Shown in pieces: positions 3,481 to 38,275 of a stretch of 64,000 bases of DNA. This stretch comes from Blastocatellia bacterium (GTDB lineage Bacteria > Acidobacteriota > Blastocatellia > UBA7656). The stretch's first letter is position 1; each line of letters opens with the position of its first letter. The DNA lies in assembly GCA_035575515.1 (NCBI GenBank), contig DATLXU010000091.1, positions 1,638 to 65,637 on the forward strand. The letters are read 5' to 3'. Under the pieces are notes generated by a model. It was not told the origin of the DNA, ran no database searches, and saw nothing but the letters and a program-made list of their open reading frames with translations. A program made the position numbers and the translations under genes.

Positions 3481-4297
3481 GAGTATGAATCGCGTAGCTA
3501 AATTCGGATTAGCTGTGGCAGCAGTAATCGTGCTGCTGGCTATCCTGTCGCCGCTTTTGGCTTCCGAAGAAAGGGTTCAGAGTCTCGATCTCAGCGCGCG
3601 GCTCGAACCACCAACGAGAGAGCACCCGCTTGGACGCGATCAACTCGGGCGCGACGTTGCTGCGCGCATCATTTACGGCGCGCGAGTCTCGATGATGGTC
3701 GGCATATCGGTTGTCGCGCTGTCGTCAGTCGTCGGGATAATCATCGGAGCATTCGCGGGCTATCGCGGCGGGTGGATTGACAGACTCGTTTCAGGCTTCC
3801 TCTTCAACATCTTTCTTGCGTTTCCGGGAATACTTCTTGCCATTGCAATGGTCGCCTTCTTAGGGCCGAGCCTTGTGAATTTAATCGTTGCGCTGTCGGT
3901 CATCGGCTGGGTCGGTTACGCGCGATTGATGCGGGCGCAGGTCTTGAAAGTGCGCGAACTTGATTTTGTCACCGCTGCCCGCGCGCTCGGAGCGAGCGAC
4001 ACAAGGGTTTTAATTAAACATGTCTTGCCGAATTCGATTCAACCGCTGATCGTTCAAGCGTCGCTTGGAATGGCTGGCGCGATACTGGCCGAAGCTGGCA
4101 TGAGTTTTTTGGGTTTGGGAGTCGGTGAAGGAACGCCTTCATGGGGCAAGATGATTGATGATTCGCGCGAGTTCTGGTTTACGGCCCCGCACTTGTTTAT
4201 CTTTCCCGGAATAATGATTGCGCTCTCGGTGCTGGCGTTCAACTTCATCGGCGATGGACTGCGCGAGCGACTGGACCCGCGTCAACGTCCTAGATGA
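3476..4297 (+). CDS. ABC transporter permease, DppC/OppC type
   Basis: A multi-TM ORF with the EAA-loop FVTAARALGASDTRVLIKHVLPN. No ATPase or binding-protein gene is adjacent. Confidence 0.9.
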   Translation: MTSMNRVAKFGLAVAAVIVLLAILSPLLASEERVQSLDLSARLEPPTREHPLGRDQLGRDVAARIIYGARVSMMVGISVVALSSVVGIIIGAFAGYRGGWIDRLVSGFLFNIFLAFPGILLAIAMVAFLGPSLVNLIVALSVIGWVGYARLMRAQVLKVRELDFVTAARALGASDTRVLIKHVLPNSIQPLIVQASLGMAGAILAEAGMSFLGLGVGEGTPSWGKMIDDSREFWFTAPHLFIFPGIMIALSVLAFNFIGDGLRERLDPRQRPR

Positions 4298-5402
4298 ATG
4301 CCTCTTTGTTGACGACAAAAGGCATCCGCGACGGGGCGCCACCATATCGGCCTTCAATCACGTCAATCACTGCTTGAACTGTGCGGCCTGCCATGCCGAT
4401 GTCAGGGTCGGGCGAAAGCCGCGTCTCGCGTGTGCCCGACGCGAAATGATGAAACAGCCGCAATCGGCCTTTCAATCTCTCATCCCGCAACGGGCTATCT
4501 GCTGGCAACGGCTCTTTCTCGAATACATCGAGCGCCGCGCCCGCAATCTTGTTATCGATCAAAGCATCATAAAGCGCGCGCTCGTCAATCACAGGCCCGC
4601 GCGATGTGTTAATAAGATAAGCCGTCGGCTTCATCAGATTAAACGCCGCTTCATTCATCAGGTGATAAGTCGGCTCGCCCTCTTCGCCCGGCATTATGAG
4701 CGGCACGTGAAGGCTCACGTAATCGCCGCGCTCAATTGCTTCTTCAAACGAGACGTAAGCTACCTCGTTACGCCTGCGCGAAAAACCTGCTTCGTGTCTG
4801 ATCTGCATCTGGCGCGAAACCGCCTCGATGAATCTCTCATCACGCGAAGTCGCGTCATACAATAGTATGTCCATGTCGAGGCCTACGCATTTTTTGGCAA
4901 ACGCTTTGCCAATGCGCCCTGCCCCGATGACCGCAACTGCTTTGCCCGTCACCTGGTCGCCTAAAAATGGATGATAAGGATGCCACGAACCCCAATGATT
5001 TTCGCGCACCAGTTCTTCCGATGAGTAGAGCTTGCGCGAGACTGCGCCCATCATGAAGAAAGCAAACTCAGCCGTCGCTTCCGTCAGTACATCAGCCGTG
5101 TTCGTAAACGGTATCTGGTAGCGATTGGCCGCCGCGCGGTCAATGTTGTCGAAACCTACGGCGTATTGCGCCACCACGCGCAAAGTCTCTTTGCCTGCCG
5201 CGAAGACTTCTTCATCAATCTTATCGCGCAAGGTCGTGATGAGCGCATCAATACCGCTGCGAACCTTTTCGATGATGAATGACTTCGGCGGCGGCTCTGT
5301 GTCCGTGTAAACTTCAACCTCGTAGCCGCGCTCGCGCAATCGGTCTAAAGCCTCGCCGCCAATATCCGCCGTCGCAAAGATTCTGATTTTGTCCTTGGTC
5401 AT
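4290..5402 (-). CDS. D-isomer-specific 2-hydroxyacid dehydrogenase (glyoxylate/hydroxypyruvate reductase-like)
   Basis: AVIGAGRIGKAFAKK (GxGxxG) and LINTSRGPVIDERAL. The start is moved to MTKDKIRIF (ATG at 5402) because the longer ORF-track N-terminus reads through repeat 5391-5501. The 3' end overlaps the convergent permease gene by 8 bp. Confidence 0.85.
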   Translation of the reverse strand: MTKDKIRIFATADIGGEALDRLRERGYEVEVYTDTEPPPKSFIIEKVRSGIDALITTLRDKIDEEVFAAGKETLRVVAQYAVGFDNIDRAAANRYQIPFTNTADVLTEATAEFAFFMMGAVSRKLYSSEELVRENHWGSWHPYHPFLGDQVTGKAVAVIGAGRIGKAFAKKCVGLDMDILLYDATSRDERFIEAVSRQMQIRHEAGFSRRRNEVAYVSFEEAIERGDYVSLHVPLIMPGEEGEPTYHLMNEAAFNLMKPTAYLINTSRGPVIDERALYDALIDNKIAGAALDVFEKEPLPADSPLRDERLKGRLRLFHHFASGTRETRLSPDPDIGMAGRTVQAVIDVIEGRYGGAPSRMPFVVNKEAFI

Positions 5403-5864: not shown

Positions 5865-5989
5865 CTACACATACAACTGCCTCAAGCCCGTTCTTTTGAA
5901 ACATATTCGAAAATCCCGCGTTGTAATTTAGGCTCGAAGTGAGATAATTCCTCAAGCAAAGATTTCACCCTCATAGAAAGTGAGCGACG

Positions 5990-8313: not shown

Positions 8314-8395
8314 AACCACAGAGACACCGCAGGCACGGAGAATTTACATAGAGTTGTCTCCGTGTATTCTCCGTGCCTGCGGTGCTTTCGTGGTT
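8314..8395. repeat. REP-like palindromic element (CACAGAGAC...GGAGA family), probable terminator of the upstream operon
   Basis: A perfect 19-bp stem, CACCGCAGGCACGGAGAAT (8325-8343) / ATTCTCCGTGCCTGCGGTG (8366-8384), with an outer AACCAC/GTGGTT pair. It lies just 3' of the stop at 8406. Related copies sit at 36627-36691 and 54355-54405. Confidence 0.75.
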
Positions 8396-19463: not shown

Positions 19464-22400
19464 ATGATGAAAAGAAGATTTGTCCCGCTGCTGAGCGTTT
19501 GGCTTCTGGTTTTTAGTTTCTGGTTTCTGGTTTCCGGTTCAATGGCGAAAAAGCAGAGAGCGGAAGCTAACAACCTGAAACAAGAACTTGCGCCTCAAGC
19601 GGTTTCGCTCGTTATTAATGAGTATCTGGCCGATCCTCCCGCCGGTTCGGCGGGCGATGCCAATGGCGACGGCACGCGCGACGCGGCGCAGGACGAATTC
19701 GTTGAGGTAGTTAACACCAGCTCAACGCCGCTCAACGTCGGCGGATTCACCATCAGCGACTCGACGCAGATAAGATTCACTTTTCCTGCGGGAACAACGA
19801 TTCCGGGCGGCGAAGCCTCTGTTGTTTTCGGTGGCGGTAGTCCTATGGGATCATTCGGCAACGCGGCTGCAAACGGATTGGTTTTCAAAACTGGCAGCGG
19901 AGGCTTATCGCTCAATAACGGCGGCGACACCATTACTATAAAAGACAACTCGAGCGCGACCATAGCAACACTCACCTACAGCGCGGTTGAGGGCGGCGCG
20001 CACCAGTCAATCACTCGAAGCCCTGACATCACAGGCGCATTCGTCACACATTCGTCAGCAGCGGGAAGCGGCGGGACGTTGTTCTCGCCCGGCGCGCGAG
20101 TCAACGGCAGCCCGTTCACAACTACTGACCCTGTTATCAATTCAATCTCGCCCGACGCTGCGATTGCTGGAAGCGGGCCGGTCGCGCTCACCGTCACAGG
20201 CCAGAATTTTCAAAACGGCTCGCGCATCCGCGTTGATGGCTCGCCTTTGACAACAACCTTTTTCGACTCGACGCAACTCGGCGCAGAACTGCCTGATTCA
20301 GTAACCAACTCGCCGGGCGCGCACTCAATCACGGTGCAGAATCCTGATTTAACCGTGTCGAACGCTCTCACATTCACAGTGCTCGGCGCAGTCGGAATAA
20401 ACGAGTTTCTGGCCGACCCGCCCGACGGTCCCTCAGGCGACGCAAACGGCGATGGCGTGCGCGATTCGTCGCAGGACGAATTCATAGAGATAATCAATCG
20501 CTCGGACGCGCCCTTCAACATCGGCGGCTTCGCTGTTAGAGACGCCGACGCCGTGCGATTCACCTTTCCCGGAGGCACAATCATTCCTGCGGGCGAGGTC
20601 GCAGTCATCTTCGGCGGCGGTCATCCTCAAGGTGATTTTGGCAACGCTCGATTCAACGGTCTGGTCTTCACCGCAGCTTTGTCATTGAACAACACGGGCG
20701 ACACGATCACGCTGCTCAGCGGGGGCAGCCCTGTTGAATCAATCACCTATGGCGCGACGGAAGGCAGCGCGAACCAGTCAATCAATCGCAATCCCGATGC
20801 GACAGGGACAACCTTCGCGCCGCATGCATCAATCAACGGAAGCGGAGGGCGACCCTTTTCGCCCGGCGTGCAGGTCAACGGCGCGGCCTTCACCGTCGGC
20901 CCGCGCATCACCGAAATCGCGCCCGACCGCGTGCCGCAAAACAGCCCGCCTTTCGATCTTATAGTTCGAGGCAGCGGCTTCGACGGCGACTCAACTGTCT
21001 TCATTGACTTCGCGCCCGTAAGCTCGATTATTGCAGGCTCAGACCTGATAGCTCATGTGCCAGCGAGCGTGACCGCCGCCTCCGGCCCTCACACGGTTCT
21101 GGTCATTAATGAAAACGGCAATCGCTCGAACGCGCTGACGCTCACAGTAATTCCGCCGCCGCCAGCAATCGAAATTCTGCTGCCCAGATTCGTTCAGGCT
21201 GGCTCAGGCGATCTCACGCTCATCGTGCTTGGCAAGAACTTCGACGCTGCGGCTTCGGTGTTAGTCGAAGGCTCGCCTGTTGCGACAATGTTCACGAGCG
21301 CAGGCCAGTTGAAAGCGACCGTGCCTGCATCGGTCGCTGCGACTATTGGGACTCGCCGCGTGAGAGTGCGAAACGGCGATGGGCAGGAGTCGAACGATTT
21401 TCCTCTTGAGATAATTCCGGCAACGACGCGCATCACGCGAATTTCGCCCGCGCAAGTAATCGCTGGCAATCCGGGTTTCAAGCTCACGGTCACAGGCGCA
21501 AATTTCAAAAGCGGCGCAGTCGTGATGTTCGACGGCTCTGCGCTCGACACCTCGTTCATATCATCAACAGAGTTGCTTGCGGACATTCCTGCATCGCTCG
21601 TGGCAACGCCCGGCTCTCATGGCATAATCGAGTTCAATTCGGACGGCGGCGGTTCGAACGAAGTTGTCTTCAATGTCTTCCCTGACCCGCCCGTTGTGTT
21701 TTCGATTGACCCGGCTGGCGTGATTGAAGGCAGCGGCGACATTACGATCACAATCACGGGCGATAAGTTTCAGCGCGGCGCGTCCGTTCGCGTCATCGAG
21801 AATAATCAAGCATCAGCGCGGCTCGACACAAAGTTCATCACAAGCCAGCGGCTCGAAGCCTTGCTGCCTGCCGCGTTCGTCCAAACGGCGGGCGCGGTCT
21901 TAATCAGAGTCGAGAATCCCGATCTCGGAGCATCAGGCAATGCAAGGCTCAAAGTCTTGATTCGCGATCCACTCGTCATAAACGAATACCTTGCGGACCC
22001 GCCTGATGACCTGTCAGGCGACGCGAACGGCGATGGCTCGCGCAGCTCATCGCAAGATGAGTTCATCGAGATAGTCAATCGCACCGGCGAGCCGATTGAT
22101 ATCTCAGGTTACACTTTGTCAGATGCGGATGAAATTCGCCACGTCTTCGCAACCGGGACAATCATTCCGCCGTTTGAAGCGGCGGTCGTGTTCGGCGGCG
22201 GCGCACCCGCTGGAAGATTCGGCAACGCGGCTGAAAATCATCTGGTGTTCAAAGCATCATCGGGCGGATTGTCCTTAAACAACGGCGGCGACACGATAAA
22301 GCTGCGCGACGCTGCGGGCCGCATCCTTCAAGAGATAAAATTCACAGCGGCAGAAGGCGGCGCGAATCAATCAATCAACCGCGATCCTGACATTGACGGC

Positions 22401-23279
22401 GCGGTCTTCACGCTCCACACGCGCGTTGCCGAAGACGAAAGCCATCTGTTTTCGCCCGGCGCAAAAGCCAATGGCGCAGCCTTCACCGTTAAGCCTGCGA
22501 TTCTTGCGCTCGCGCCCGCAAGCGTTCGCATACGCTCGGCTGAGTTCACGCTTATCGTAACCGGAAGCGATTTTCTGCCGGGCGCGGCGGTGATATTCAA
22601 TCAATCGGAGCTTGCTACGGTCTTTCATTCAAGCAGCGAGCTTCAGGCGCGGGTGCGAAGCGAATTAATCGGCGAAGGCGGCGCGGTTGAAGTGCGCGCG
22701 CGAAATCCGAAAGGCGAGCTTTCATCGCCTGCGAAGTTCTTAATCACAGACGACCCGCCGCGCCTTGTGACTATCAATCCGCAGAAGGTTGGAACAGGCG
22801 CGGAGAACGTTGAGATTGCGATTGCAGGCGAGCGGTTTCAGCGCGGCGCAGTCGCGATGATTGCAAGCGAAAAACTTGAGACGCGATTTGTCAGCTCAAG
22901 CTCGCTTGTAGCTGTTGCGCCCGCGAAGTTCTTCAATCGAGCGAGCGAGCTTGAAATCCGCGTGCTGAATGCCGACGGCAACCAGTCGAACGCGTTGACG
23001 CTCGCGGTTGAAAACGGCCCGCTCATCACGAGACTTTCACGCGCGCGAATAAAGGCCGGGCGCGGCGCAGTTGAGTTAACAATCGGCGGCGTGGCGTTCA
23101 AGCCCAATGCTGTCATCTACGTCAACGACCGGGCGGTTGCGACATCTTTTGTGAGCGACACCGAATTGACCGCGCGCATACCTGCAGAGATGACCGCCGC
23201 GCCCGGCGTGCTCACGATTCAAGCGCGGCACTCAGACGGTGGCAGATCAAACAAGGCTCAGGTCAAAGTGGTTGAATAA
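19464..23279 (+). CDS. Large secreted/cell-surface protein with three lamin-tail-domain (LTD) modules interleaved with many IPT/TIG-like Ig repeats
   Basis: A signal peptide. INEYLADPP..GDANGDG.RD..QDEF(V/I)E(V/I)(V/I)N occurs three times (starting near 19608, 20391 and 21971). Between them are repeated ~80-aa units of the type I(S/T)P...G....LT(V/I)TG.NF..G..V..DG. Confidence 0.85.
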   Translation: MMKRRFVPLLSVWLLVFSFWFLVSGSMAKKQRAEANNLKQELAPQAVSLVINEYLADPPAGSAGDANGDGTRDAAQDEFVEVVNTSSTPLNVGGFTISDSTQIRFTFPAGTTIPGGEASVVFGGGSPMGSFGNAAANGLVFKTGSGGLSLNNGGDTITIKDNSSATIATLTYSAVEGGAHQSITRSPDITGAFVTHSSAAGSGGTLFSPGARVNGSPFTTTDPVINSISPDAAIAGSGPVALTVTGQNFQNGSRIRVDGSPLTTTFFDSTQLGAELPDSVTNSPGAHSITVQNPDLTVSNALTFTVLGAVGINEFLADPPDGPSGDANGDGVRDSSQDEFIEIINRSDAPFNIGGFAVRDADAVRFTFPGGTIIPAGEVAVIFGGGHPQGDFGNARFNGLVFTAALSLNNTGDTITLLSGGSPVESITYGATEGSANQSINRNPDATGTTFAPHASINGSGGRPFSPGVQVNGAAFTVGPRITEIAPDRVPQNSPPFDLIVRGSGFDGDSTVFIDFAPVSSIIAGSDLIAHVPASVTAASGPHTVLVINENGNRSNALTLTVIPPPPAIEILLPRFVQAGSGDLTLIVLGKNFDAAASVLVEGSPVATMFTSAGQLKATVPASVAATIGTRRVRVRNGDGQESNDFPLEIIPATTRITRISPAQVIAGNPGFKLTVTGANFKSGAVVMFDGSALDTSFISSTELLADIPASLVATPGSHGIIEFNSDGGGSNEVVFNVFPDPPVVFSIDPAGVIEGSGDITITITGDKFQRGASVRVIENNQASARLDTKFITSQRLEALLPAAFVQTAGAVLIRVENPDLGASGNARLKVLIRDPLVINEYLADPPDDLSGDANGDGSRSSSQDEFIEIVNRTGEPIDISGYTLSDADEIRHVFATGTIIPPFEAAVVFGGGAPAGRFGNAAENHLVFKASSGGLSLNNGGDTIKLRDAAGRILQEIKFTAAEGGANQSINRDPDIDGAVFTLHTRVAEDESHLFSPGAKANGAAFTVKPAILALAPASVRIRSAEFTLIVTGSDFLPGAAVIFNQSELATVFHSSSELQARVRSELIGEGGAVEVRARNPKGELSSPAKFLITDDPPRLVTINPQKVGTGAENVEIAIAGERFQRGAVAMIASEKLETRFVSSSSLVAVAPAKFFNRASELEIRVLNADGNQSNALTLAVENGPLITRLSRARIKAGRGAVELTIGGVAFKPNAVIYVNDRAVATSFVSDTELTARIPAEMTAAPGVLTIQARHSDGGRSNKAQVKVVE

Positions 23280-23288
23280 CGAAATAGC

Positions 23289-23366
23289 TGGGAGCGCGGA
23301 CATCTCGACCGCCTGAACTCGAAAACTTTTAATTCGAAATAGTGCTGTCGAGATGTCCGCGCTGCC
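23289..23366 (+). terminator. Long perfect hairpin downstream of the LTD gene
   Basis: GCGCGGACATCTCGAC (23294-23309) pairs perfectly with GTCGAGATGTCCGCGC (23347-23362). It starts 10 nt after the stop. Confidence 0.65.
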
Positions 23367-23496
23367 AATAAACAGCGTCATCTCTTGCAACGCTTCAATC
23401 CGCTTCCTTCATCTACCCTTCGGCTTATCCGTAACAACGCGCAGTGCTAAAATCTTTCTTGGCAGATAGACCTGCTCTTTATTAAGGACACAAAAA

Positions 23497-29564: not shown

Positions 29565-30077
29565 TTATTTGAGCAAGTCCGGGTTCTTCGGGCGCATCGC
29601 CGTTCCTATTAAATCAATAATGGCGCGCTCAACTGCGCTGGCGATTTCTTCAGTTGCCTGCTGCTCGTAAATTGGAAACAGTTGCCGCTCTTCCTTTCTG
29701 ATGTGCGATTCAAGCAGGTCAGCAAACACGGAAAGCAACGAAGGAAGCTCATCTTGTTTCGCGTCGCGCAACGTCTCAACAACCAATCTCATCTTGTCGT
29801 GCTCAAAGAGCAATTCGCTGATAAGCCCGCTTGCGCCTGCGAAGGTTTGCATCGAAGGGAAGAGTATTTCCTCTTCTGCCTTGAAGTGCGGCAGCAGGTC
29901 GCTTTCAAAAAACTGAATCGCCTGCTCGCGCTTGCGCTCAAGCCATAGACGGTCGTCTCTGTGGATGGGCAGGCCGCGATGAATGCGCAGGCAGACCATC
30001 AGGCCATAATGATGCTCGCGCGAAAGTGGAACGAGGCTGTCGTGCCGTCGCGATGATTTCATAACCTTATCGTTCAC
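29565..30077 (-). CDS. Hemerythrin HHE cation-binding domain protein
   Basis: LSREHHYG..., HFKAEEEILFP, FEHDKM and HIRKEERQLFP His/Glu motifs. Confidence 0.8.
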   Translation of the reverse strand: MNDKVMKSSRRHDSLVPLSREHHYGLMVCLRIHRGLPIHRDDRLWLERKREQAIQFFESDLLPHFKAEEEILFPSMQTFAGASGLISELLFEHDKMRLVVETLRDAKQDELPSLLSVFADLLESHIRKEERQLFPIYEQQATEEIASAVERAIIDLIGTAMRPKNPDLLK

Positions 30078-30162: not shown

Positions 30163-31362
30163 TCAAATCTGAGATTGCGCCAGCTTTCTTGAGGGTGAGA
30201 TGCCAAGTCTCCAAATCACAAGCAAACAGATCAAAGCGAACAGCGATAGAAAAACAAAGCCGAGCGTGAACGCGCCCGTCACCTGCTTCACTCCGCCTAC
30301 CACAAGCGGTGGAAAAAATCCGCCAAGCCCGCCCGCTGCTCCGACAAGCCCCGTCACCGCGCCGACCGATTGCGGAAAGTGCTCAGGAACTAACTTGAAG
30401 ACCGCGCCGTTGCCTAATCCGATGGCGGCAGCCATTCCGAGCGCGCCAATCGTGAACGTAGACATCAAAGGGCAAGCAAGAAAAATCGCCATCGCAGCGA
30501 CGGCAGGAAAGACCCATAACAGAATTGCCCGCCCGCCTACTTTGTCAGCGAGCGCGCCGCCTACGGGCCGCATCAAGGTCGCAAGCACAACAAAGCCCGC
30601 CGTGCGAAAGCCTGCGTCCTTCGCCGTGAGGTTGAACATCTCTGTCAAAAAGGTCGGCAGGTAGATGCTCATCGCAACGAACCCGCCGAACGTTAAAAAA
30701 TAATAAAGCGAAAGCACCCAGCTCATCTTGTGCTTCAGCGGGCGCGCAATGTCCGCCAGTGTCTTGGCGGGGCCGCGTCGCGGAGCGTTGCGCGCTTTGA
30801 GAAAGAAGACTGCAAGCCACACGGCGAGCAACACCGCAAATGTCCAGAAGCCCCACTCGAATCCAAACGCAGCGGCAATCACGGGCGAGCCATACGCTGC
30901 GAGCGACTGTCCAATATTTCCCGCGCCGTAAACCCCGAGCGCCATGCCCTGACGCGCTGGCGGGAACCATCCGCTCACGAATGCGACGCCAACCGAAAAA
31001 CTTGCGAGCGCGATGCCGATGAAGAATCCGCACACGAGCAGTTGCCAGTACGCGCTAACAAATCCCATCAGCACAGCAGGGATGATTGCGAAAGCCATCA
31101 CGATTGAAAAGACCACGCGCCCGCCATAGCGGTCTGTGAGTATGCCAAGCGGGATACGGCCAAGGCTGCCGAGCAGAACGGGCAGCGCGAGCGCTATGCT
31201 CACTTGAAGCGGGCTGAGCTGGAAATTTTTTTTCAGTATCGGCATCATCGCTGAAACTGATCCGAAGACCGCGAAGCAAATCGCGAAGGCTCCGGTCGCG
31301 AGCGCCAACTGAAGATTATTGCCTCGAATCGAAGATTGCGCCGAAGGATTGTCCATAATCAC
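30163..31362 (-). CDS. narK: MFS nitrate/nitrite porter (NNP family, NarK/NasA-like)
   Basis: 12-TM MFS with [10 protein letters not shown] and the two NNP signatures YGAGNIGQS and [15 protein letters not shown]. Confidence 0.85.
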
Positions 31363-31580
31363 TTCTCCATCGCGTAAAGGTATCTGAGCAGTCCCGCGTT
31401 GAGTAAAAAACAGACGAGGCTTGCAATCGCCGCAGGCCAGATGACCGATTCGTCGCCGCCCAAGTAAGCGTTCATCGTAGCCACGAGCAGCCAGAGTTGC
31501 AAAATGACAAGCACGACGACTATGCAGAGTATGCCATAGATTATCGTTGTCTTTTGCTCGCGTGTGAATCGTTTCTTCAT
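31359..31580 (-). CDS. Small two-TM membrane protein of unknown function
   Basis: A 73-aa ORF with 4-bp overlaps to both neighbours (31577-31580 and 31359-31362). Confidence 0.5.
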
Positions 31581-32134
31581 ACCGTTCTTAACTCAACGCC
31601 AGTCGCATAAATCGCCCGCGAGTCTTTGTTGATTTCGAGCTTCACCTGCGCGAGCGGCCTTCGCGGAGGCCCTGCAATCGGGCGGCCAGTTGCAATATCA
31701 AATAATCCTTCGTGGCACGGGCAGCGAAAGCACTTGCTTTCAGGATCGGGCACGACGGCGCACGAAAGATGCGTGCACTGCTGGCTGAAAGCCGTGAAGG
31801 TGTTTTCATCCAGTCGCACAAGCACGCATTTGTCGTGAGCTTCGGGATAAGCAAACGTCTTCGAGCCGCCGACTTCGATCTCGTCAATGCGAGCGATGAG
31901 TTGTTTCGCAGGCTCGCCGCGCCGCTTGCGAAAGAAGTTCTGAACTCCAATCCAGAACTGCCCGACGGCGAACGCGAGACTCGTCAGCACAAGAAACTTT
32001 GTGAAGTCGCGCCGCGCGACGTAATGGTCTTCGGGCCAGTCAATCGGAAAATCTTTGCGCCAGCGGGGCTGCTCCGACACGGGGCGACCATCGGGCGCGA
32101 GGCTCAGTTGTTCTTTGTCGCGTTCATTCATCAA
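31577..32134 (-). CDS. Membrane-anchored Rieske [2Fe-2S] protein
   Basis: CTHLSCAV ... CPCHEGLF Rieske boxes. They are preceded by [19 protein letters not shown], a twin-arginine-like signal-anchor as in bc-type Rieske subunits. Confidence 0.85.
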
Positions 32135-32778
32135 TCCGCTTCTCCCGCATAAACTGCATCCATCAAAACCGTAAGCGTCAGGTCCTTGCCTATCGCCTGC
32201 TCGCTCATCGCCGCAGTCACGTCAATGTATTCTGTGCGTCCCACGCGCGGCACCATCATATTCACTTTCGTTGTAATAGTCTGCTCTCCGAATTGAAAGC
32301 GATTCACAGGCACAGCGCGCGGGCGAAGGGCTTCAATCTCTTCGCGCGTGCCGAATGCGAGCGCCTGACTTGGGCAAACGGTCGCGCACATCGGTTTCTT
32401 GCCGACTGATGTGCGGTCGTAGCACATATCGCACTTCATCATCAGCTTGAGTTCGGTCGCCATCTTCGGCACGCCGAACGGGCAGGCCAGCACGCAGTTG
32501 TTGCAGGCGATACAGCGCGGCTTGCGCGCCGACTGCACAACTCCATCATCGGTCTTCTTAATCGCATCAGCCGGACAGACTTCAGCGCACGTCGGCGAGT
32601 CGCAATGCATGCAGACGACGGGCGCGGTCTGAACCGAGTGCGCGCGGTCAACATATTCGAGGTGAATCATCGAATAGCCTTTGTGCGTGTCGCACTCGCT
32701 GCAAGCCTGCACGCACGCCTGGCATCCGATGCACCGCGTCGCGTCTATGAAGAACTCCATGTTCGCTGGAACTGACAT
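32131..32778 (-). CDS. 4Fe-4S ferredoxin-type subunit (NrfC/HybA/DmsB-like multi-cluster protein)
   Basis: [37 protein letters not shown] and CDMC...CATVCP cluster motifs. No signal peptide. Confidence 0.9.
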
Positions 32779-32786
32779 ACTTTTTT

Positions 32787-32873
32787 AGCAGGCAGTAGGC
32801 AGTTATATGGACGCATTGAATATGCGAACTGTTTATTCAATGCGCAGAATCTATCTTTTGACTGCCTACTGCT
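32787..32873. repeat. Nested hairpin built on GTAGGCA heptamers, between the molybdoenzyme and Fe-S genes
   Basis: The outer stem is GCAGTAGGCAGT (32792-32803) / ACTGCCTACTGC (32861-32872). The inner perfect stem is GCATTGAATA (32813-32822) / TATTCAATGC (32834-32843). The right half overlaps the last codons of the molybdoenzyme ORF. Confidence 0.65.
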
Positions 32874-35071
32874 TTCTTCACCCGTACCGCGCAGACTTTG
32901 TATTCGGGTATCTTCGAGATTGGGTCCTGCGCGGAGATGGTCAACTGGTTGGCGCTTTGTCGGCCAGCCCAGTGATAAGGAATAAAGATCGTATCGGGGC
33001 GAATCGTTGTAACGACCTGCGCCCGCAGCGTCACGCTCCCGCGACGCGATTCGACCGTCACTAGCTCGCCGTCGCGAATGGCGTATCGCTCAGCCAATAT
33101 CGGATGCATCTCGATTCGCGGCTCAGGGTACTGATCAACGAGCGGCCCGATGCGTCTCGTCTGCGTGCCCGAAAGATACTGGCTGACGACGCGGCCCGTC
33201 GTGAGAATTATCGGGTACTCTTCATCCGTGTCTTCTGCGGGCGGCGTGTACTCGGCGACGTTGAATCGAGCGCGGCCATCGGGAAAATAGAACGGCCCCG
33301 CGCCTTTCGCTATCGGGTTCCACGAGCCTGCTTCAAACAGTCTCGGCGTGCCTGCGTGATCGTCGCTCGGACACGGCCAGAAGACTCCGTTCTGCCTATC
33401 AATCTTTTCATAAGTGACGCCGGAATAATCCACGACCGCGCCGCGCGTAGCTTCGCGCAGCTCGTTGAAAATCTCTCGCGGCTCGTTGAACGTGAACCCA
33501 CGCTCGCGCCCGAGCGCGCGGGCGATGTCTTGAATGATTCGCCAGTCCTGACGCGCATCGCCCGGCGGGTCAACCGCTTTGTTAATTTTGATGACGCGCC
33601 CTTCAATCTGCGTGACCGTGCCTTCGTCCTCTTCCTGAAGCGAGCCGGGCAGAACTATGTCGGCGTGATGCGCCGTTTCGCTCAGAAAGAAATCAATCGC
33701 GACGTAGAACTCTAACTTCTCAAGCACACGCGTGACGAAAGCGTTGTCGGGCAGCGAGACTTTCGGGTTGAAACAGATTGAAAGCAGCCCCCTTATTTCG
33801 CCTCTATCAATGCGGCGCATCATCTCGTAGCAATCAACACCCGCGCCGGGCAGGTCGTCCGCGTTGACGCCCCACACTTTTGCGACCGCAGCGCGATGCT
33901 CAGGGTTTGTGATGTCGCGCCCGCCCGGAAGCTGATCGCATTTCTGCCCGTGCTCGCGCCCGCCCTGCCCGTTGGCCTGCCCCGTGATCGTAGCGTAGCC
34001 GCAGCCCTCGCGCCCGATGCGTCCAGACGCAAGCACTATGTTGATTGCTGAGAGCACGTTCTGCACGCCGTGCGAGTGATGCTCAAGCCCGCGCGCGTGC
34101 AAAAGAAAACTTGTTCGCGCCGTGCCCCAAAGCTCGGCGGCCTGACGAATCGCTTTTTCAGTTATGCCCGTGACCTGCGCCGTGCGCGACGGAGTCCACT
34201 GTTTGACGTGCTCGGCTACGGCATCGAATCCAACTGTGTGCTTTTCAATAAAGTCGTGATCGAGCCAGTCGTTTTCGATCATCAAATGAAGTATGCCGTT
34301 GAACAGAGCGACATCGCGGCCCGGCTTGACGGGCAGGAACAAATCGCACGTTCGCGCGATGGGCGTGATGCGCGGGTCAACGACGATTATCTTCGCGCCG
34401 TACTCGCGGGCCTGCCAGACATAGTTTGTCGTTATCGGCGAACACTCCGCGACGTTCGATCCGGCTATCCAGATGACTTCGGCCTTTGGAATATCGCTCC
34501 ATGGATTTGCGGCGCGGTCAACGCCGAACGCTTTTTTGTTTCCCGCCGCCGCGCTCACCATGCAGAGCCTGCCGTTGTAATCAATGTTCGATGTGCGCAG
34601 GCAAACGCGCGCGAACTTGCCCATCAGGTATGCCTTCTCGGTTGTGAGGCTTGCGCCGGTCAGCACGCCGAACGCATCCGCGCCATATTGTGATTGAATG
34701 CGCTCGATCTCTGCGGCTACGCGCTTGATGGCTTCTTCATAATTAACAGCGCGAAAGCCGCCCGCGATTGATGTGTCGCGCTCAAGCGCAGTCGTCAACC
34801 TATCGGGATGCGAGCCTTGCAGGTAACGCTTCACGCCTTTGGGGCAGAGCATCCCGCGATTGAACGGAAAGTCTTCGCGCGGCTCGAACCCGATTACCTC
34901 GTTGTCTTTGACCTTGAGATTGATGCCGCACTGCTGGCCGCAGAAGCAGCAATGCGTCGGCACTATGCGATCAGGCTCGATGCCCGTTTCAAGCCGCGCG
35001 CCGCTTGAATAAGCCAGGTGCGGGCCGAATCGTTCGATTATGTCTTGCGCTTCGTCCGGTATTGCTGCCAT
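32837..35071 (-). CDS. Molybdopterin (bis-MGD) oxidoreductase, NarB/NasA-type nitrate reductase catalytic subunit
   Basis: The N-terminal Fe-S motif is [13 protein letters not shown]...MLCPKG. The [18 protein letters not shown] block carries a Cys Mo-ligand, as in assimilatory/Nap-type nitrate reductases. There is no twin-arginine signal, and the gene is co-operonic with the NarK-type porter. Confidence 0.85.
34907..34978. repeat. Left copy of a perfect 72-bp inverted repeat (codons 32-55 of the nitrate reductase gene)
   Basis: The reverse complement of 34907-34978 is identical (72/72, aligned by hand) to 36522-36593. It encodes [24 protein letters not shown]. Confidence 0.9.
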
Positions 35072-35090
35072 TGAAATAAATCCTCATGCT

Positions 35091-36236
35091 TCACGGATGA
35101 AAATTCTTTCGGTCTTCTTCGCCGAGTGGGCCGAAGCCTTGCTGCGGATTGCCGAAGCTCGGTTGCGGCAAAGTCACAGCATCGGTCTGAATCAACTCGC
35201 CGCGTCGCGGAAGCCACGCGCGGCCTTGAGCAATCACAAGCATCGCTCGTCGGCAGCGCGGGCATATCCATTGATAATGTTCTGCCGATCCTTTAATCTC
35301 GTAGCTGTAGCCCAGTTGCTTTTCAACGCGAATCAAATCCTCAACTTTCAAGCGCGACGTGAACTCCGCGCCGCAGCGACGGCACGCGGCTCGTTCTTCC
35401 CGCTCGCCGATGTCTTTATAGAAGCTCACGCCAAGTTGCGCGGGCCGCTGAAAGATGTGAAAGAACTTTCCGAACGGCAGCCACAGGAGCGTAAAGATGA
35501 CCGTTATCGCATGAAGTATCGCGAGAAAATCGAACGCATAACCTTTAAGCCACGAATAACTCGCCGTCAGCATCAATCCCGTGACGCTCACGGCGAACAG
35601 AAGAATCAGCGGGAAGAAATCTTCGCCGAACTGTTGGAGCGCAGCGGCTCCGTGATCGCGCATTCTTCGGCGCATCGCAAGCATCACGCCCGCGATTACA
35701 AGAAATGACGCCCACACAAGTCCATGAAAAACTATGAAGCCGAAGAGCGAATGAATCGGAAAGGAGAACGTCGGAAAGCCGAACAGATAAGCGCGATACC
35801 AGTTCAGATCGTCGGGCAACGTCTCGAAGTGAATCCAGCCGAAGACGAGCGGGAACGTGATTGCAATCGCGATGATGCAGCCCCACATAATCAAAAAGTG
35901 CGCGCCGCCGCGCAACAGGCTGCGCCTGAAGATGAAAAGGTTCAGCGCGAACTCTCTCGTCAAACGCGCAAACCATACGCGCATGTTGTGAGCGAGATAT
36001 CGAGGCTTGAAAAAGACCTGCCAGCCGCGCTTCCAGTACAAGGCAGTCGGAGGGCGTTGCAACCACATCGCATAGCGATAAGTGATGGCGAAGGCCGCAA
36101 ACAAAACTGCGAACGTGTAGCCCACGAGCGCAGCATCGAAGTGCGACAGGTTGCGCGAGCCGACCCAAATCATCGCCGCGAGCGCGACGGTGACAATCAA
36201 GCCCCAGAAAGCCGCTTTGCGTGTTTCCCTGTTCAT
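35091..36236 (-). CDS. NarI/DsrM/HdrE-like polytopic membrane protein with C-terminal CxxC...CxxC zinc-ribbon/rubredoxin-like tail
   Basis: Multiple TM helices with conserved His candidates, and [14 protein letters not shown] resembling the NarI-family C-terminal motif. The tail is CRRCGAEF...CPRCRR. The gene ends 19 bp before the molybdoenzyme start. Confidence 0.7.
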
Positions 36237-36521
36237 TCCGCGTATCGTGAATGTCGCTCTGAACGGTCAGGCTCGCTCTCTCAATCGAGCCGACGCGCGA
36301 GGACAGACCGCCTCTAATACCCGCACTTGATAAAGGCAATCATCGTTCCATCGTCGCAAGTGTTGATGGCGCGTCGCAGCGCGCGAAAACTCTCGCAACT
36401 TGTTGTCACAGCAGCGAACTTTTTCGCCCATCAATGTGATAATCGTGCGATTTTTCGCAGTCAATGATGCGGCTCGCGGTTGGGCAATTGCAAGTTGACA
36501 ACGGCTGTGTGATTGTGCGCA

Positions 36522-36593
36522 GAGCCTGATCGCATAGTGCCGACGCATTGCTGCTTCTGCGGCCAGCAGTGCGGCATCAATCTCAAGGTCAAA
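36522..36593. repeat. Right copy of the perfect 72-bp inverted repeat (non-coding context)
   Basis: Identical to the reverse complement of 34907-34978, with identity ending abruptly on both sides. The ORF-track entry 36513-36698 ([27 protein letters not shown]..) is this copy read in frame from a TTG. Confidence 0.9.
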
Positions 36594-36626
36594 ATAGGAT
36601 TACAGCGTGAAGGCTTTGAGACTATT

Positions 36627-36691
36627 AACCGCAGAGACGCCGCAGAACAGAGAGGGCGCGCAGAGATTCGCAAAACCTCTCCGCTGCGGTT
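36627..36691. repeat. REP-like element (CGCAGAGAC family), probable terminator of the hemerythrin gene
   Basis: AACCGCAGAGACGCCGCAGAACAGAGAGG ... CCTCTCCGCTGCGGTT. The outer stem is AACCGCAG/CTGCGGTT. It lies directly 3' of the stop at 36708. Confidence 0.6.
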
Positions 36692-36707
36692 GTTCTGATG
36701 AGGCGGC

Positions 36708-37277
36708 TTAAAGCGTGCGACGGCTCGGATCAACTCCGCGACGCGCGGCCATCTCGTGGCCCATGGCTTCAAGTTCAGGTTGAGAAAGAATCTTTCCCGC
36801 GAGCGGAAAGATTTCATTGTCTTCAATGGCGATGTGGCGGCGATAAATCTCCGCAAGGTCTTCGAGCATCCCTTCGAGCCGGTGCGCTTCGCCTTCCGAA
36901 AGCTGGCCTTCATCAAGCCAGCGGCGCGCGAGCGCATCAACCTCTTTGTGAGTTTCATCGGCGATGGTGTGATCGCGGTGCAACGCATTGAGCACGGCCA
37001 CAGCAGATTGAGCCAGCACGTCGCCCGACGCACGCATTCGTGGAAAGAGCGATTCTTCTTCATCGAGCGTGTGCTTCGGCGCGGCCTGCTTGAAATACCT
37101 GAGCGCAGCTTCGAGGGCTTCGCGCTCGTCGCTATGCAACTTGCGGCCACGCGCGCGGCGAGCAACGGTCACAAGCAGGCTTAGAAAATATTCGATGCGG
37201 CGGTGGCAATCGTTGAGCAATCCCAGAGGATTCGTGAAATCGCTCTCCGCTTTTTTGCCAATCGTGACAGCCATCAA
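36708..37277 (-). CDS. Hemerythrin domain protein
   Basis: NDCHRRIEYFL, HTLDEEESLFP, LHRDHTIADETH and HIAIEDNEIFP motifs. Confidence 0.8.
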   Translation of the reverse strand: MMAVTIGKKAESDFTNPLGLLNDCHRRIEYFLSLLVTVARRARGRKLHSDEREALEAALRYFKQAAPKHTLDEEESLFPRMRASGDVLAQSAVAVLNALHRDHTIADETHKEVDALARRWLDEGQLSEGEAHRLEGMLEDLAEIYRRHIAIEDNEIFPLAGKILSQPELEAMGHEMAARRGVDPSRRTL

Positions 37278-37486
37278 ATCTATCCTAACTCTAAGAGTGT
37301 GATTTTAGAAAAGCCTTTTGCCGCAAAGCGATTTATAAAAGGTGGCCAGACGTGTAACGTCTGGAATGCGGCGACAGAACATCCGCGCTCTGAAGGAGCG
37401 CCAGAAAAACTTTATTTGCGCTTAATCCAGATGTTTCACATTTGGCTACCTTCTTTGTGCGCCTTTGGCGCTGTCGGAGACTCTGG

Positions 37487-38206
37487 CTAACCTTCCATCT
37501 CGACAGCGCGAGGGAAGAGTATGTTGTTTTCGAGATGAATGTGCTGGTGCAGATCGGCTTCAAACTCTTCAAGCGCATGATAGAGCGTCTGGTAGCTGAT
37601 GCAAGCATCATCCGGCAGCGTGAAGTCTTTCGTAAGACTTCGAATCGCGCGCAGCATATCGCCCGCCGCGTCGTGCTCGATCATCATCATGCGAACAGGG
37701 TTGCGCACGGTCCCGAAGAACGGCATCGGCGGAGGCGCGTTGCGATTCGCAGCCTCTTCAAGCTGCTCGACGTAAGGAAAGAGTATCTGTTCTTCTTTGA
37801 GCATGTGATTTATCAATTCACGTTTCAATTCAAAAAACAGCCCCTGAACGCGCAGCAGCTCAGGATGATTCTGGCCGTGCACAGAGCAGACTTTCGCAAT
37901 CAGCGGATCGAGCCGGTCAAGCTCGTCGCGCGTGAAGACGTGATGCTTGTCGAGAATGTAAGAGATCAATTCTGTGAGCGGCTCATTCTGCCAGTTTTTG
38001 AGCGCGCCGATTTCGCCACCGGCTTGAACAGATTGCTCAAGCGACTGCACGACTTCTTCGACCTTCACGCCAGCCGAAGCGCAGGCTTCCGTGAGCGATT
38101 TGCCGCCGCCGCAGCAATAATCAATTCCGAGTTTTTCAAACAGCCGCGTCGCGCTCGGAACCTCAAGCGCCAGCTCCCGCACCGTCTTAGTTGCATTGAT
38201 AGCCAT
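37487..38206 (-). CDS. ytfE: Iron-sulfur cluster repair di-iron protein (RIC; YtfE/ScdA family)
   Basis: The ScdA_N-type N-terminus is LFEKLGIDYCCGGGKSL, followed by two hemerythrin-like halves (HHVFTRDEL..., HMLKEEQILFP, EHDAAGDML, HIHLENNILFP). The start is set at MAINATK (ATG at 38206), 7 nt after GGAGG. Confidence 0.9.
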   Translation of the reverse strand: MAINATKTVRELALEVPSATRLFEKLGIDYCCGGGKSLTEACASAGVKVEEVVQSLEQSVQAGGEIGALKNWQNEPLTELISYILDKHHVFTRDELDRLDPLIAKVCSVHGQNHPELLRVQGLFFELKRELINHMLKEEQILFPYVEQLEEAANRNAPPPMPFFGTVRNPVRMMMIEHDAAGDMLRAIRSLTKDFTLPDDACISYQTLYHALEEFEADLHQHIHLENNILFPRAVEMEG

Positions 38207-38275
38207 AAAGCGTCCTCCGATCAAATTCTTTAATGCTTCGATTCAGAGTTTACGCCCGGCTGATTTGCAATGCAG

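Follow-up and report, generated by a model that had tools for sequence, protein, structure and literature searches.

In the window (the whole 64-kb stretch of Blastocatellia bacterium DNA that was analysed), a gene encoding a NasC/NarB-like molybdopterin oxidoreductase, referred to here as the Mo-enzyme, lies next to a gene for a polytopic membrane protein (Table 1). The Mo-enzyme has the Pfam domains Molybdop_Fe4S4 (residues 36-80), Molybdopterin and Molydop_binding. Its top NCBIfam match is NasC (E 1e-244), with a score of 814 bits that falls under the 1100-bit equivalog cutoff. One haplotype carries a nonsense codon in this gene, indicating that part of the population is not under stringent selection at this locus.

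The neighbouring gene was called 'narI-like' in a first-pass annotation of the sequence. It does encode a membrane protein, although the likeness to NarI is weaker than was claimed: the protein had no match in Pfam, and only weak, sub-threshold matches to the TcuB/QmoC membrane domains were obtained. No match was found among solved structures either. The next gene upstream encodes a hemerythrin-domain protein, and a RIC/YtfE gene is also present in the hemerythrin neighbourhood (Pfam/NCBIfam).

Table 1. Genes, repeat arms and sequence features of the locus, in positions of the window.
Feature	Position	Strand	Size	Remarks
NasC/NarB-like molybdopterin oxidoreductase (Mo-enzyme) gene	32837..35071	-	744 aa	
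'NarI-like' polytopic membrane protein gene	35091..36236	-	381 aa	first gene of conserved cluster
Hemerythrin-domain gene	36708..37277	-		directly upstream
Arm 1 (donor)	34907..34978	-	72 nt	Mo-enzyme codons 32-55, with the CxxCxxxC portion of the Fe4S4 motif
Arm 2 (inverted copy)	36522..36593	+	72 nt	codons 32-55 in sense on the plus strand; in the hemerythrin/NarI-like spacer
Enclosed segment	34979..36521		1543 nt	between the arms
ORF created by arm 2	36513..36698	+	61 codons	TTG start; nowhere called as a gene
Promoter-like site (predicted)	36436..36464	-		TTGACT, 17-nt spacer, TATCAC
Palindrome array	36383..36458			three GCGA-N4-6-TCGC, at 36383, 36414 and 36447

A segment of the Mo-enzyme gene is repeated, in inverted orientation, upstream of the membrane-protein gene. 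Exactly two copies of the 72-mer are present in the window, as judged by a repeat search and by a pattern search allowing three mismatches, and they are perfect reverse complements of each other (72/72, 100% complementary). Both searches bear out the perfect inverted duplicate of codons 32-55 described in the first-pass annotation. No repeat of this length is expected by chance (100 shuffles), and the pair is the sole long perfect repeat within the 64 kb. The arms are 1543 nt apart; the enclosed segment is made up of Mo-enzyme codons 1-31, the whole membrane-protein gene and 285 nt upstream of the latter. Identity had been said to end abruptly at both arms, and local alignment of the 200-nt flanks was indeed no better than that of shuffled sequences (p 0.23 and 0.17).

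Arm 2 is located in a 471-nt spacer between the hemerythrin gene and the NarI-like gene. The hemerythrin terminator that had been placed beside it was not recovered: no terminator-like site was found on the minus strand from the hemerythrin stop codon up to arm 2. An in-frame TTG had been reported just outside arm 2; it is present in the sequence and shares its frame with the arm. The short ORF that begins there is probably meaningless.

In the operon direction, the only promoter-like site comes 58 nt after arm 2. It was missed by a consensus scan because its -10 hexamer ends in C. The three palindromes are 31-33 nt apart and the last of them occupies the promoter spacer; the array is a probable operator region. 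With the predicted promoter downstream of arm 2, the arm is probably absent from the operon's own mRNA. RNA folding in the spacer was not significantly unusual (z -0.46 and -1.26), and there was no match to Rfam families in positions 34700-37400.

The repeat recurs in metagenomes of the Centralia coal-fire soil, for which per-sample metaSPAdes assemblies of 2x150 ThruPLEX libraries, made with no MDA, are available (PMC11237453). Besides the window, it was found in six assemblies (L001, L002/L006, L004, L007, L008 and L179), with arm 2 itself present in L001, L002, L004 and L179. The same two arm-2 junctions were seen in independent per-sample assemblies from 2015-2021 and from two sites. Nine k=31 Logan contigs with the repeat came from eight runs (SRR24677604, -607 to -611, -613 and SRR7882662, one run being from a different accession series). 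Eight Logan contigs all end exactly 30 nt into arm 2, and contig L003 consists of the enclosed segment with 30 nt of each arm. The repeat is common to at least three SNP haplotypes, with zero divergence between the arms in all haplotypes, and none of the haplotypes or samples of this population lacks the copy. The exact 72-mer had no match in JGI metagenome contigs.

It is clear that the repeat is genuine DNA and not an assembly artefact. The largest k-mer was 127, as inferred from contig overlap; as this exceeds 72 nt, k-mers from single reads span the whole arm and the assembled orientation is read-supported. Inverted joins are a known class of artefact, yet a chimeric or fold-back join made in assembly or library preparation is extremely improbable, given identical arm-2 junctions across years, sites and the Logan graphs of eight runs, libraries made without MDA, and unique sequence on both sides of arm 2. 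Contig breaks at 35058/35184 were considered as a sign of rearrangement; they coincide with a segregating SNP at 35185 and a 127-nt k-mer overlap, and not with the repeat.

The repeat is confined to one population or lineage. It was absent from all 160 related loci with the same cluster (80 from species genomes and 80 from JGI metagenomes), in which complementarity of at least 22-24 nt was sought between the upstream region and the 5' end of the Mo-enzyme gene. The closest relative (84% identity) is represented by two contigs, and in each of them only 5 nt separate the end of the upstream gene from the membrane-protein gene. Intergenic alignment with L009, the closest hemerythrin-linked relative, gave nothing alignable, and the pre-insertion site was not reconstructable. 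Unrelated intergenic elements were seen at other loci, namely REP-like copies (L061), a 320-nt inverted repeat (L059) and a 25-nt hairpin (L060).

We consider it likely that arm 2 arose recently, in this lineage only, as a templated inverted insertion, and that it has since become fixed and is probably neutral. That the repeat might be the relic of a recent rearrangement was one of three readings originally put forward, and it is the one that accords with perfect identity, lack of flank homology, occurrence in all haplotypes and samples, and absence from the 160 loci. A single lineage and a single orientation argue for a recent copying accident and not for a switch. One mutational event would have copied codons 32-55 of the Mo-enzyme gene, inverted, into the spacer 1.5 kb upstream. 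Probably a polymerase engaged in replication or repair jumped for a short time to the opposite strand as its template, at a distance no greater than an Okazaki fragment, before returning; such an origin is inferred from established knowledge of replication template switching. The insertion would then have become fixed in the local Blastocatellia-like population. Lying upstream of the probable promoter/operator and leaving both genes intact, it would most likely be selectively neutral.

Quasipalindrome-associated and short-range template-switch mutations have been described in E. coli by Lovett and colleagues (PMC6357072, PMC7202029) and in great apes (PMC7954356). Arm 2 resembles them in being a perfect, sharp-edged inverted copy of nearby sequence, as expected of a single recent event, with no homology in the flanks and a donor within about one Okazaki fragment length. 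It differs in showing neither microhomology at the junctions nor a quasipalindrome setting, and the case for a template-switch origin is to that extent indirect. On either side of the arms the adjoining bases do not match; a microhomology, if there was one, would now lie concealed within the ends of the arm. Size and distance count against it as well, since described switches mostly involve a few to tens of nucleotides at tens to hundreds of nucleotides from the donor, whereas here 72 nt were placed 1.5 kb away.

A further point against this explanation is that both edges of arm 2 fall on codon boundaries (a 1-in-9 coincidence) and that the copy includes the functionally critical Fe-S motif. 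As for neutrality, the 7 years over which the copy has persisted and its fixation in all haplotypes are compatible with drift or selection alike.

Arm 2 could instead act through RNA. It would be included in minus-strand RNA, either as hemerythrin read-through or 3' UTR or within a long leader of the operon, and would pair with the Mo-enzyme mRNA. The resulting 72-bp duplex with codons 32-55, formed in cis or in trans, would block translation or recruit RNase III, so that hemerythrin expression is coupled to silencing of the reductase or read-through transcripts are destroyed. On the strand of the hemerythrin gene, the arm follows the stop codon after 114 nt in which no terminator-like site was found, and the predicted duplex energy is -157.7 kcal/mol. 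Hemerythrin and RIC/YtfE as neighbours suggest a link to nitrosative stress. Nevertheless, regulation of this kind is unlikely. The sole promoter-like site and the palindrome array are downstream of arm 2, the local fold is ordinary and without an Rfam match, and the repeat occurs in none of the relatives, in whose loci complementarity (at least 22-24 nt) was neither conserved nor co-varying. Perfect identity free of any sign of age is equally expected of a new neutral insertion. By the predicted pairing, a 72-bp duplex would arise in any read-through transcript of the hemerythrin gene.

In phage lambda, sib retroregulation of int is an example of RNase III control by a duplex formed only in read-through transcripts. 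The arm duplex would likewise form only in transcripts starting upstream of arm 2, thereby marking read-through as opposed to promoter-proximal mRNA. The sib element is a local, conserved hairpin; here the predicted partners are 1.5 kb apart, one of them is in a translated ORF, and the pairing is not conserved. It is very unlikely that arm 2 is a newborn regulatory antisense RNA, which arose from a single templated insertion and has been caught just after its origin. If it were, stress-linked expression of hemerythrin would silence nitrate reduction, or RNase III would destroy the read-through transcript.

The arms were also proposed to be the substrate of an ON/OFF switch, in which exchange by RecA or a recombinase flips the enclosed segment, so that the body of the Mo-enzyme gene and the genes downstream of it lose their start and promoter. 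An arm of 72 bp is longer than the minimum that RecA needs for recombination, and the nonsense allele shows that loss of function is tolerated at the locus. Inverted repeats flank the segment, and 72-bp arms with a 1543-nt spacing fit the geometry of gene-overlapping invertons, some of which are known without a nearby recombinase (PMC9881135). Milman et al. (2023) found that repeats of at least 44 bp separated by at most 2588 bp are enriched among candidates with intra-species variation (PMC9881135), and the present arms are thus within the range tied to programmed inversions. Gene-altering or partial-intergenic invertons and shufflons (Milman PMC9881135; Chanin bioRxiv 10.1101/2023.03.11.532203) likewise have only one of their two arms within a coding sequence.

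Against a switch, only one orientation was observed. Arm 1 was spanned in seven assemblies and arm 2 in five, and all 12 arm junctions were parental at the sensitivity that assembly gives. Contigs of 2016, 2017 and 2019 cross both arms, as does the window, and contigs break elsewhere than at the arms. None of the four chimeric proteins predicted for the inverted haplotype was present in a collection of 15 billion proteins (exact-sequence look-up). Recombinase, resolvase and transposase domains were absent from 40 ORFs of the window searched with Pfam and NCBIfam, which represent nearly all of those that do not overlap and reach 150 aa or more; the Pfam scan did not extend to shorter ORFs, to ORF 4218-4865 or to ORF 29565-30077, the last of which was searched with NCBIfam alone. 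There is also no meaningful product in each orientation. Once inverted, the Mo-enzyme gene would start from a TTG that immediately follows a TGA and lacks a Shine-Dalgarno-like sequence, an 89-aa fusion stub would be produced, and no alternative cassette would be supplied. Unlike gene-altering invertons, the locus has no nearby recombinase among the ORFs searched and no alternative in-frame cassette, its repeat does not recur in the 160 relatives, and a redox enzyme is an atypical target gene family. The switch reading is accordingly quite improbable. A very rare RecA-dependent inversion, inactivating the Mo-enzyme gene, could occur as a by-product of the arms. Neither such an inversion nor the read-through duplex appears to be a maintained function.

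Gene conversion offers a different account of the identity of the arms, in which arm 2 belongs to an old, inverted piece of a pseudogene and its central 72 nt were recently made identical to the resident gene. A short, confined tract of perfect identity does resemble a conversion tract. However, the flanks of arm 2 retain no residual similarity to the resident gene and do not resemble the genes of the 160 relatives; 66 of 76 blast alignments of arm 2 to relatives go no further than the arm, and only four continue beyond its left edge, by 5-22 nt. An inverted fragment upstream was seen in none of the relatives. The lack of homology beyond 72 nt, to the resident gene or to those of relatives, indicates that the patch is isolated and is not what remains of a decayed gene, so that a decayed pseudogene was rejected and conversion has only the slightest probability. 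A diversity-generating retroelement, CRISPR, IS or MITE was rejected too, there being no reverse transcriptase or transposase in the ORFs searched, no further copies, and no differences between the arms.

If arm 2 is a templated insertion, as appears likely, the locus is a clear-cut case, found in nature, of templated inverted micro-duplication and not a new mechanism, with the same repeat present in metagenomes over seven years (2015-2021) at one soil site. Its importance would be greater only if reversible inversion or antisense silencing of the reductase were true. The locus is a caution that a striking perfect repeat inside an operon is not necessarily a switch, and it would illustrate the birth of inverted repeats, which are the raw material for invertons and antisense RNAs.

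The two 72-nt arms are reverse complements over their whole length (72/72), separated by 1543 nt, and they lie where the first-pass annotation had placed them (see table). As that annotation also held, arm 1 corresponds to codons 32-55 (24 residues) of the molybdoenzyme gene, an ORF of 744 aa; arm 2 lies between a hemerythrin-domain gene and a membrane-protein gene, in a spacer of 471 nt, and the TTG reported in frame with it is present. A search tolerating ≤ 3 mismatches found only these two copies of the 72-mer in the window, with none expected in shuffled sequence, and there were no other long perfect repeats across the 64 kb. Similarity between the 200-nt flanks of the arms was no higher than in shuffled sequence.

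Coordinates of the repeat arms, neighbouring genes and other features (window positions unless another locus is named)
Feature	Position	Strand	Remark
Arm 1 (donor, left)	34907-34978		
Arm 2 (right, inverted copy)	36522-36593		
In-frame TTG	36513		
NasC-like enzyme ORF	32837-35071	minus	744 aa
Membrane-protein gene	35091-36236	minus	381 aa; adjoins 471-nt spacer
Hemerythrin-domain gene	36708-37277	minus	adjoins 471-nt spacer
Second hemerythrin-domain gene	29565-30077		
RIC/YtfE-type gene	37487-38224		
Conserved gene cluster	30163-36236		
GCGA-N4-6-TCGC palindromes	36383, 36414, 36447 (36383-36458)		spacing 31-33 nt; between arm 2 and membrane-protein start
Promoter-like site TTGACT/TATCAC	36464-36436	minus	inferred; 17-nt spacer
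1271-aa ORF	19464-23279		
Hairpin-type inverted repeats	8314-8395, 23289-23367		
Repeat copies, locus L061	3308-3360, 4543-4648, 6883-6974		
Inverted repeat, locus L059	818-1136, 3032-3351		

Elsewhere in the window, the 1271-aa ORF, with Lamin-tail and IPT/TIG domains, carries several diverged families of internal direct repeats (about 63-83% identical, about 770-1590 nt apart). Two compact hairpins adjoining the ends of large ORFs, one with 39-nt arms and a 4-nt loop and the other with 35-nt arms and a 9-nt loop, are probably terminators.

The enzyme ORF has Molybdop_Fe4S4, Molybdopterin and Molydop_binding domains, and its top NCBIfam match is the assimilatory nitrate reductase NasC (E 1e-244, under the equivalog cutoff). 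The label 'narI-like', given earlier to the membrane protein, is softer than it appeared: there was no Pfam match, and similarity to the TcuB and QmoC membrane domains was sub-threshold only. No relative of this subunit with a solved structure was found, and NCBI names it 'MFS transporter'. Among named homologues, the closest belong to MAGs of Blastocatellia and Pyrinomonadaceae (Acidobacteriota); identity to the nearest relative is only 84%. On the minus strand the order is membrane protein, NasC-like enzyme, 4Fe-4S protein, Rieske protein, DUF6755, NarK-type transporter and hemerythrin; upstream are hemerythrin, a RIC/YtfE-type di-iron protein and an Opp ABC transporter. The genes from membrane protein to NarK-type transporter recur as a conserved set in many phyla (Acidobacteriota, Chloroflexota, Armatimonadota, Planctomycetota, Herpetosiphon and others), as seen in the window and at loci L009-L088 and L099-L178. 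They look like a complex of the cytoplasmic nitrate-reductase type that is quinol-linked and under-described. The cluster is flanked by genes for two hemerythrin-domain proteins and a RIC/YtfE-type di-iron protein of Fe-S repair, which suggests a link of the locus to the handling of nitrosative or oxidative stress.

The same sequence was present, at 99.93-100% identity, in per-sample soil assemblies from the coal-seam fire at Centralia, Pennsylvania, made from ThruPLEX libraries by 2x150 sequencing and metaSPAdes without whole-genome amplification (PMC11237453). Both arms were spanned by the window and by contigs from Cen14-2019 (L001), Cen14-2017 (L004) and Cen15-2016 (L179), arm 2 alone by Cen14-2015 (L002) and arm 1 alone by L006, L007 and L008. 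The 127-nt overlap of neighbouring contigs suggests that the largest assembly k-mer was 127; as this exceeds 72, each assembled junction is backed by single-read k-mers crossing the whole arm. Independently of these assemblies, each of eight k=31 Logan contigs, drawn from eight runs of which one (SRR7882662) is in a separate accession series, terminated exactly 30 nt into arm 2 (36564), and Logan contig L003 ran across the interval between the arms and reached 30 nt into each. This is the exact behaviour of a true two-copy repeat in a k=31 graph.

On the simplest account, the repeat probably stems from a single recent event, neutral by default, that would have placed an inverted copy of 72 nt of the enzyme gene in the spacer, at a distance of 1.5 kb, the copy then becoming fixed in the local population. 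The comparison with related genomes proposed in the first-pass annotation covered 80 species genomes and 80 metagenome loci, and in none of them did an inverted repeat join the upstream region to the enzyme gene. The closest relative, represented by two contigs, has in each only 5 nt between the end of the upstream gene and the membrane-protein gene, which makes the spacer a lineage-specific feature as well. When the spacer was compared with all relatives by BLAST, significant matches were obtained for arm 2 only, to enzyme genes (80-95% identity), and 66 of 76 alignments terminated at or within the arm. Since the flanks lack homology and matches are confined to the arm, the copy is an isolated 72-nt patch from a resident gene; the flanks and alignment ends also led to rejection of a decayed gene fragment. 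Among the three earlier readings, this perfect, lineage-specific patch supports only that of a relic of recent rearrangement.

The favoured origin, inferred from general knowledge of template switching (PMC6357072, PMC7954356), is a change of template across the fork during replication or repair: donor and copy are no farther apart than roughly one Okazaki fragment, and the product boundaries are sharp. No junction microhomology is visible; it would show only against the pre-insertion allele. Template-switch insertions are the closest known events in origin, although the repeat here is longer and farther from its donor than usual. Neutrality is the default because both genes are intact and the insertion is probably outside the transcript.

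Unrelated repeats occur at two of the compared loci. Another acidobacterial MAG (L061) has a repeat of ~50-90 nt (79-86% identity, mixed orientation) in three intergenic spacers of the same cluster, which looks like a REP/MITE element, and L059 has a 320-nt inverted repeat (93%) upstream of the cluster.

An antisense or dsRNA mechanism is biologically attractive given the nearby hemerythrin and RIC genes; however, it is unlikely, as the repeat is not conserved and promoter prediction speaks against it. The palindromes upstream of the membrane-protein gene probably serve the operon as an array of repressor operators, and in a few relatives one palindrome of this kind occurs at about -166 to -207. 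In the window, the 17 nt separating the two hexamers of the promoter-like site are taken up by the last palindrome; the site is absent from the output of the consensus promoter scan because its -10 hexamer ends in C. Should this site, read from sequence, be the operon promoter, arm 2 would precede the transcription start by about 93-164 nt and fall outside the operon's own mRNA. Both arms would then be carried only by hemerythrin read-through transcripts, where a modelled arm 1/arm 2 duplex of about -158 kcal/mol could form. No terminator-like site was detectable from the hemerythrin stop to arm 2, where a hemerythrin terminator had been described. Rfam gave no family matches in 34700-37400, and the stability of spacer RNA folds was not unusual.

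Inversion between the arms as a switch has the right geometry, but is very unlikely, since three of the four defining features of programmed invertons testable here are missing: a recombinase close by, the occurrence of both orientations, and alternative states that are meaningful and recur in relatives. Recombinase, invertase or transposase domains were found in none of 40 ORFs (nearly all non-overlapping ORFs ≥ 150 aa), all 12 arm junctions from seven assemblies were in the window's orientation, and the repeat was seen in 0 of 160 relatives. In an inverted haplotype constructed in silico, the enzyme body was left with only the TTG as a start, three codons ahead of Glu32, immediately after an in-frame TGA and without a purine-rich ribosome-binding sequence, and codons 1-55 acquired a tail of 34 residues. 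The predicted products (716, 708, 89 and 61 aa) were all absent from a collection of 15 billion proteins that does hold the normal protein from the same Centralia assemblies. Inversion is not a common state, and rare inverted molecules are compatible with the data. Although alike in form, the repeat is not classed with the 'partial intergenic' or gene-altering invertons of Milman et al. (PMC9881135) and Chanin et al., owing to the missing features.

Gene conversion of an old fragment would call for flank homology, of which there is none, and is highly improbable. An assembly or library artefact has a negligible chance and is excluded for practical purposes, being contradicted by independent assemblies and graphs; the repeat is real DNA.

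Contigs of two independent assemblies begin at 35184 and another stops at 35058. Rearrangement was rejected here, since what coincides with these ends is not an arm but a G/T SNP that segregates at 35185, within the membrane-protein gene, together with the 127-nt k-mer overlap; the breaks reflect strain heterogeneity. The repeat occurs on at least three SNP haplotypes (variable sites 31516, 32885, 34607, 35185 and 37032), with no differences among them within either arm. In Cen15-2016 (L179, region 5948-5950; contig JBAIGS010001731.1), C>A at 33124 changes codon 650 of the enzyme gene from GAG to TAG (Glu650 to stop; called as 649 + 90 aa), so a loss-of-function allele segregates in the population. 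This nonsense haplotype suggests that part of the population is under no strict selection at the locus.

The copy placed in the spacer is a fresh instance of a known mutation type, and its general interest is low; interest would rise if reads revealed reversible inversion or transcripts revealed antisense silencing.
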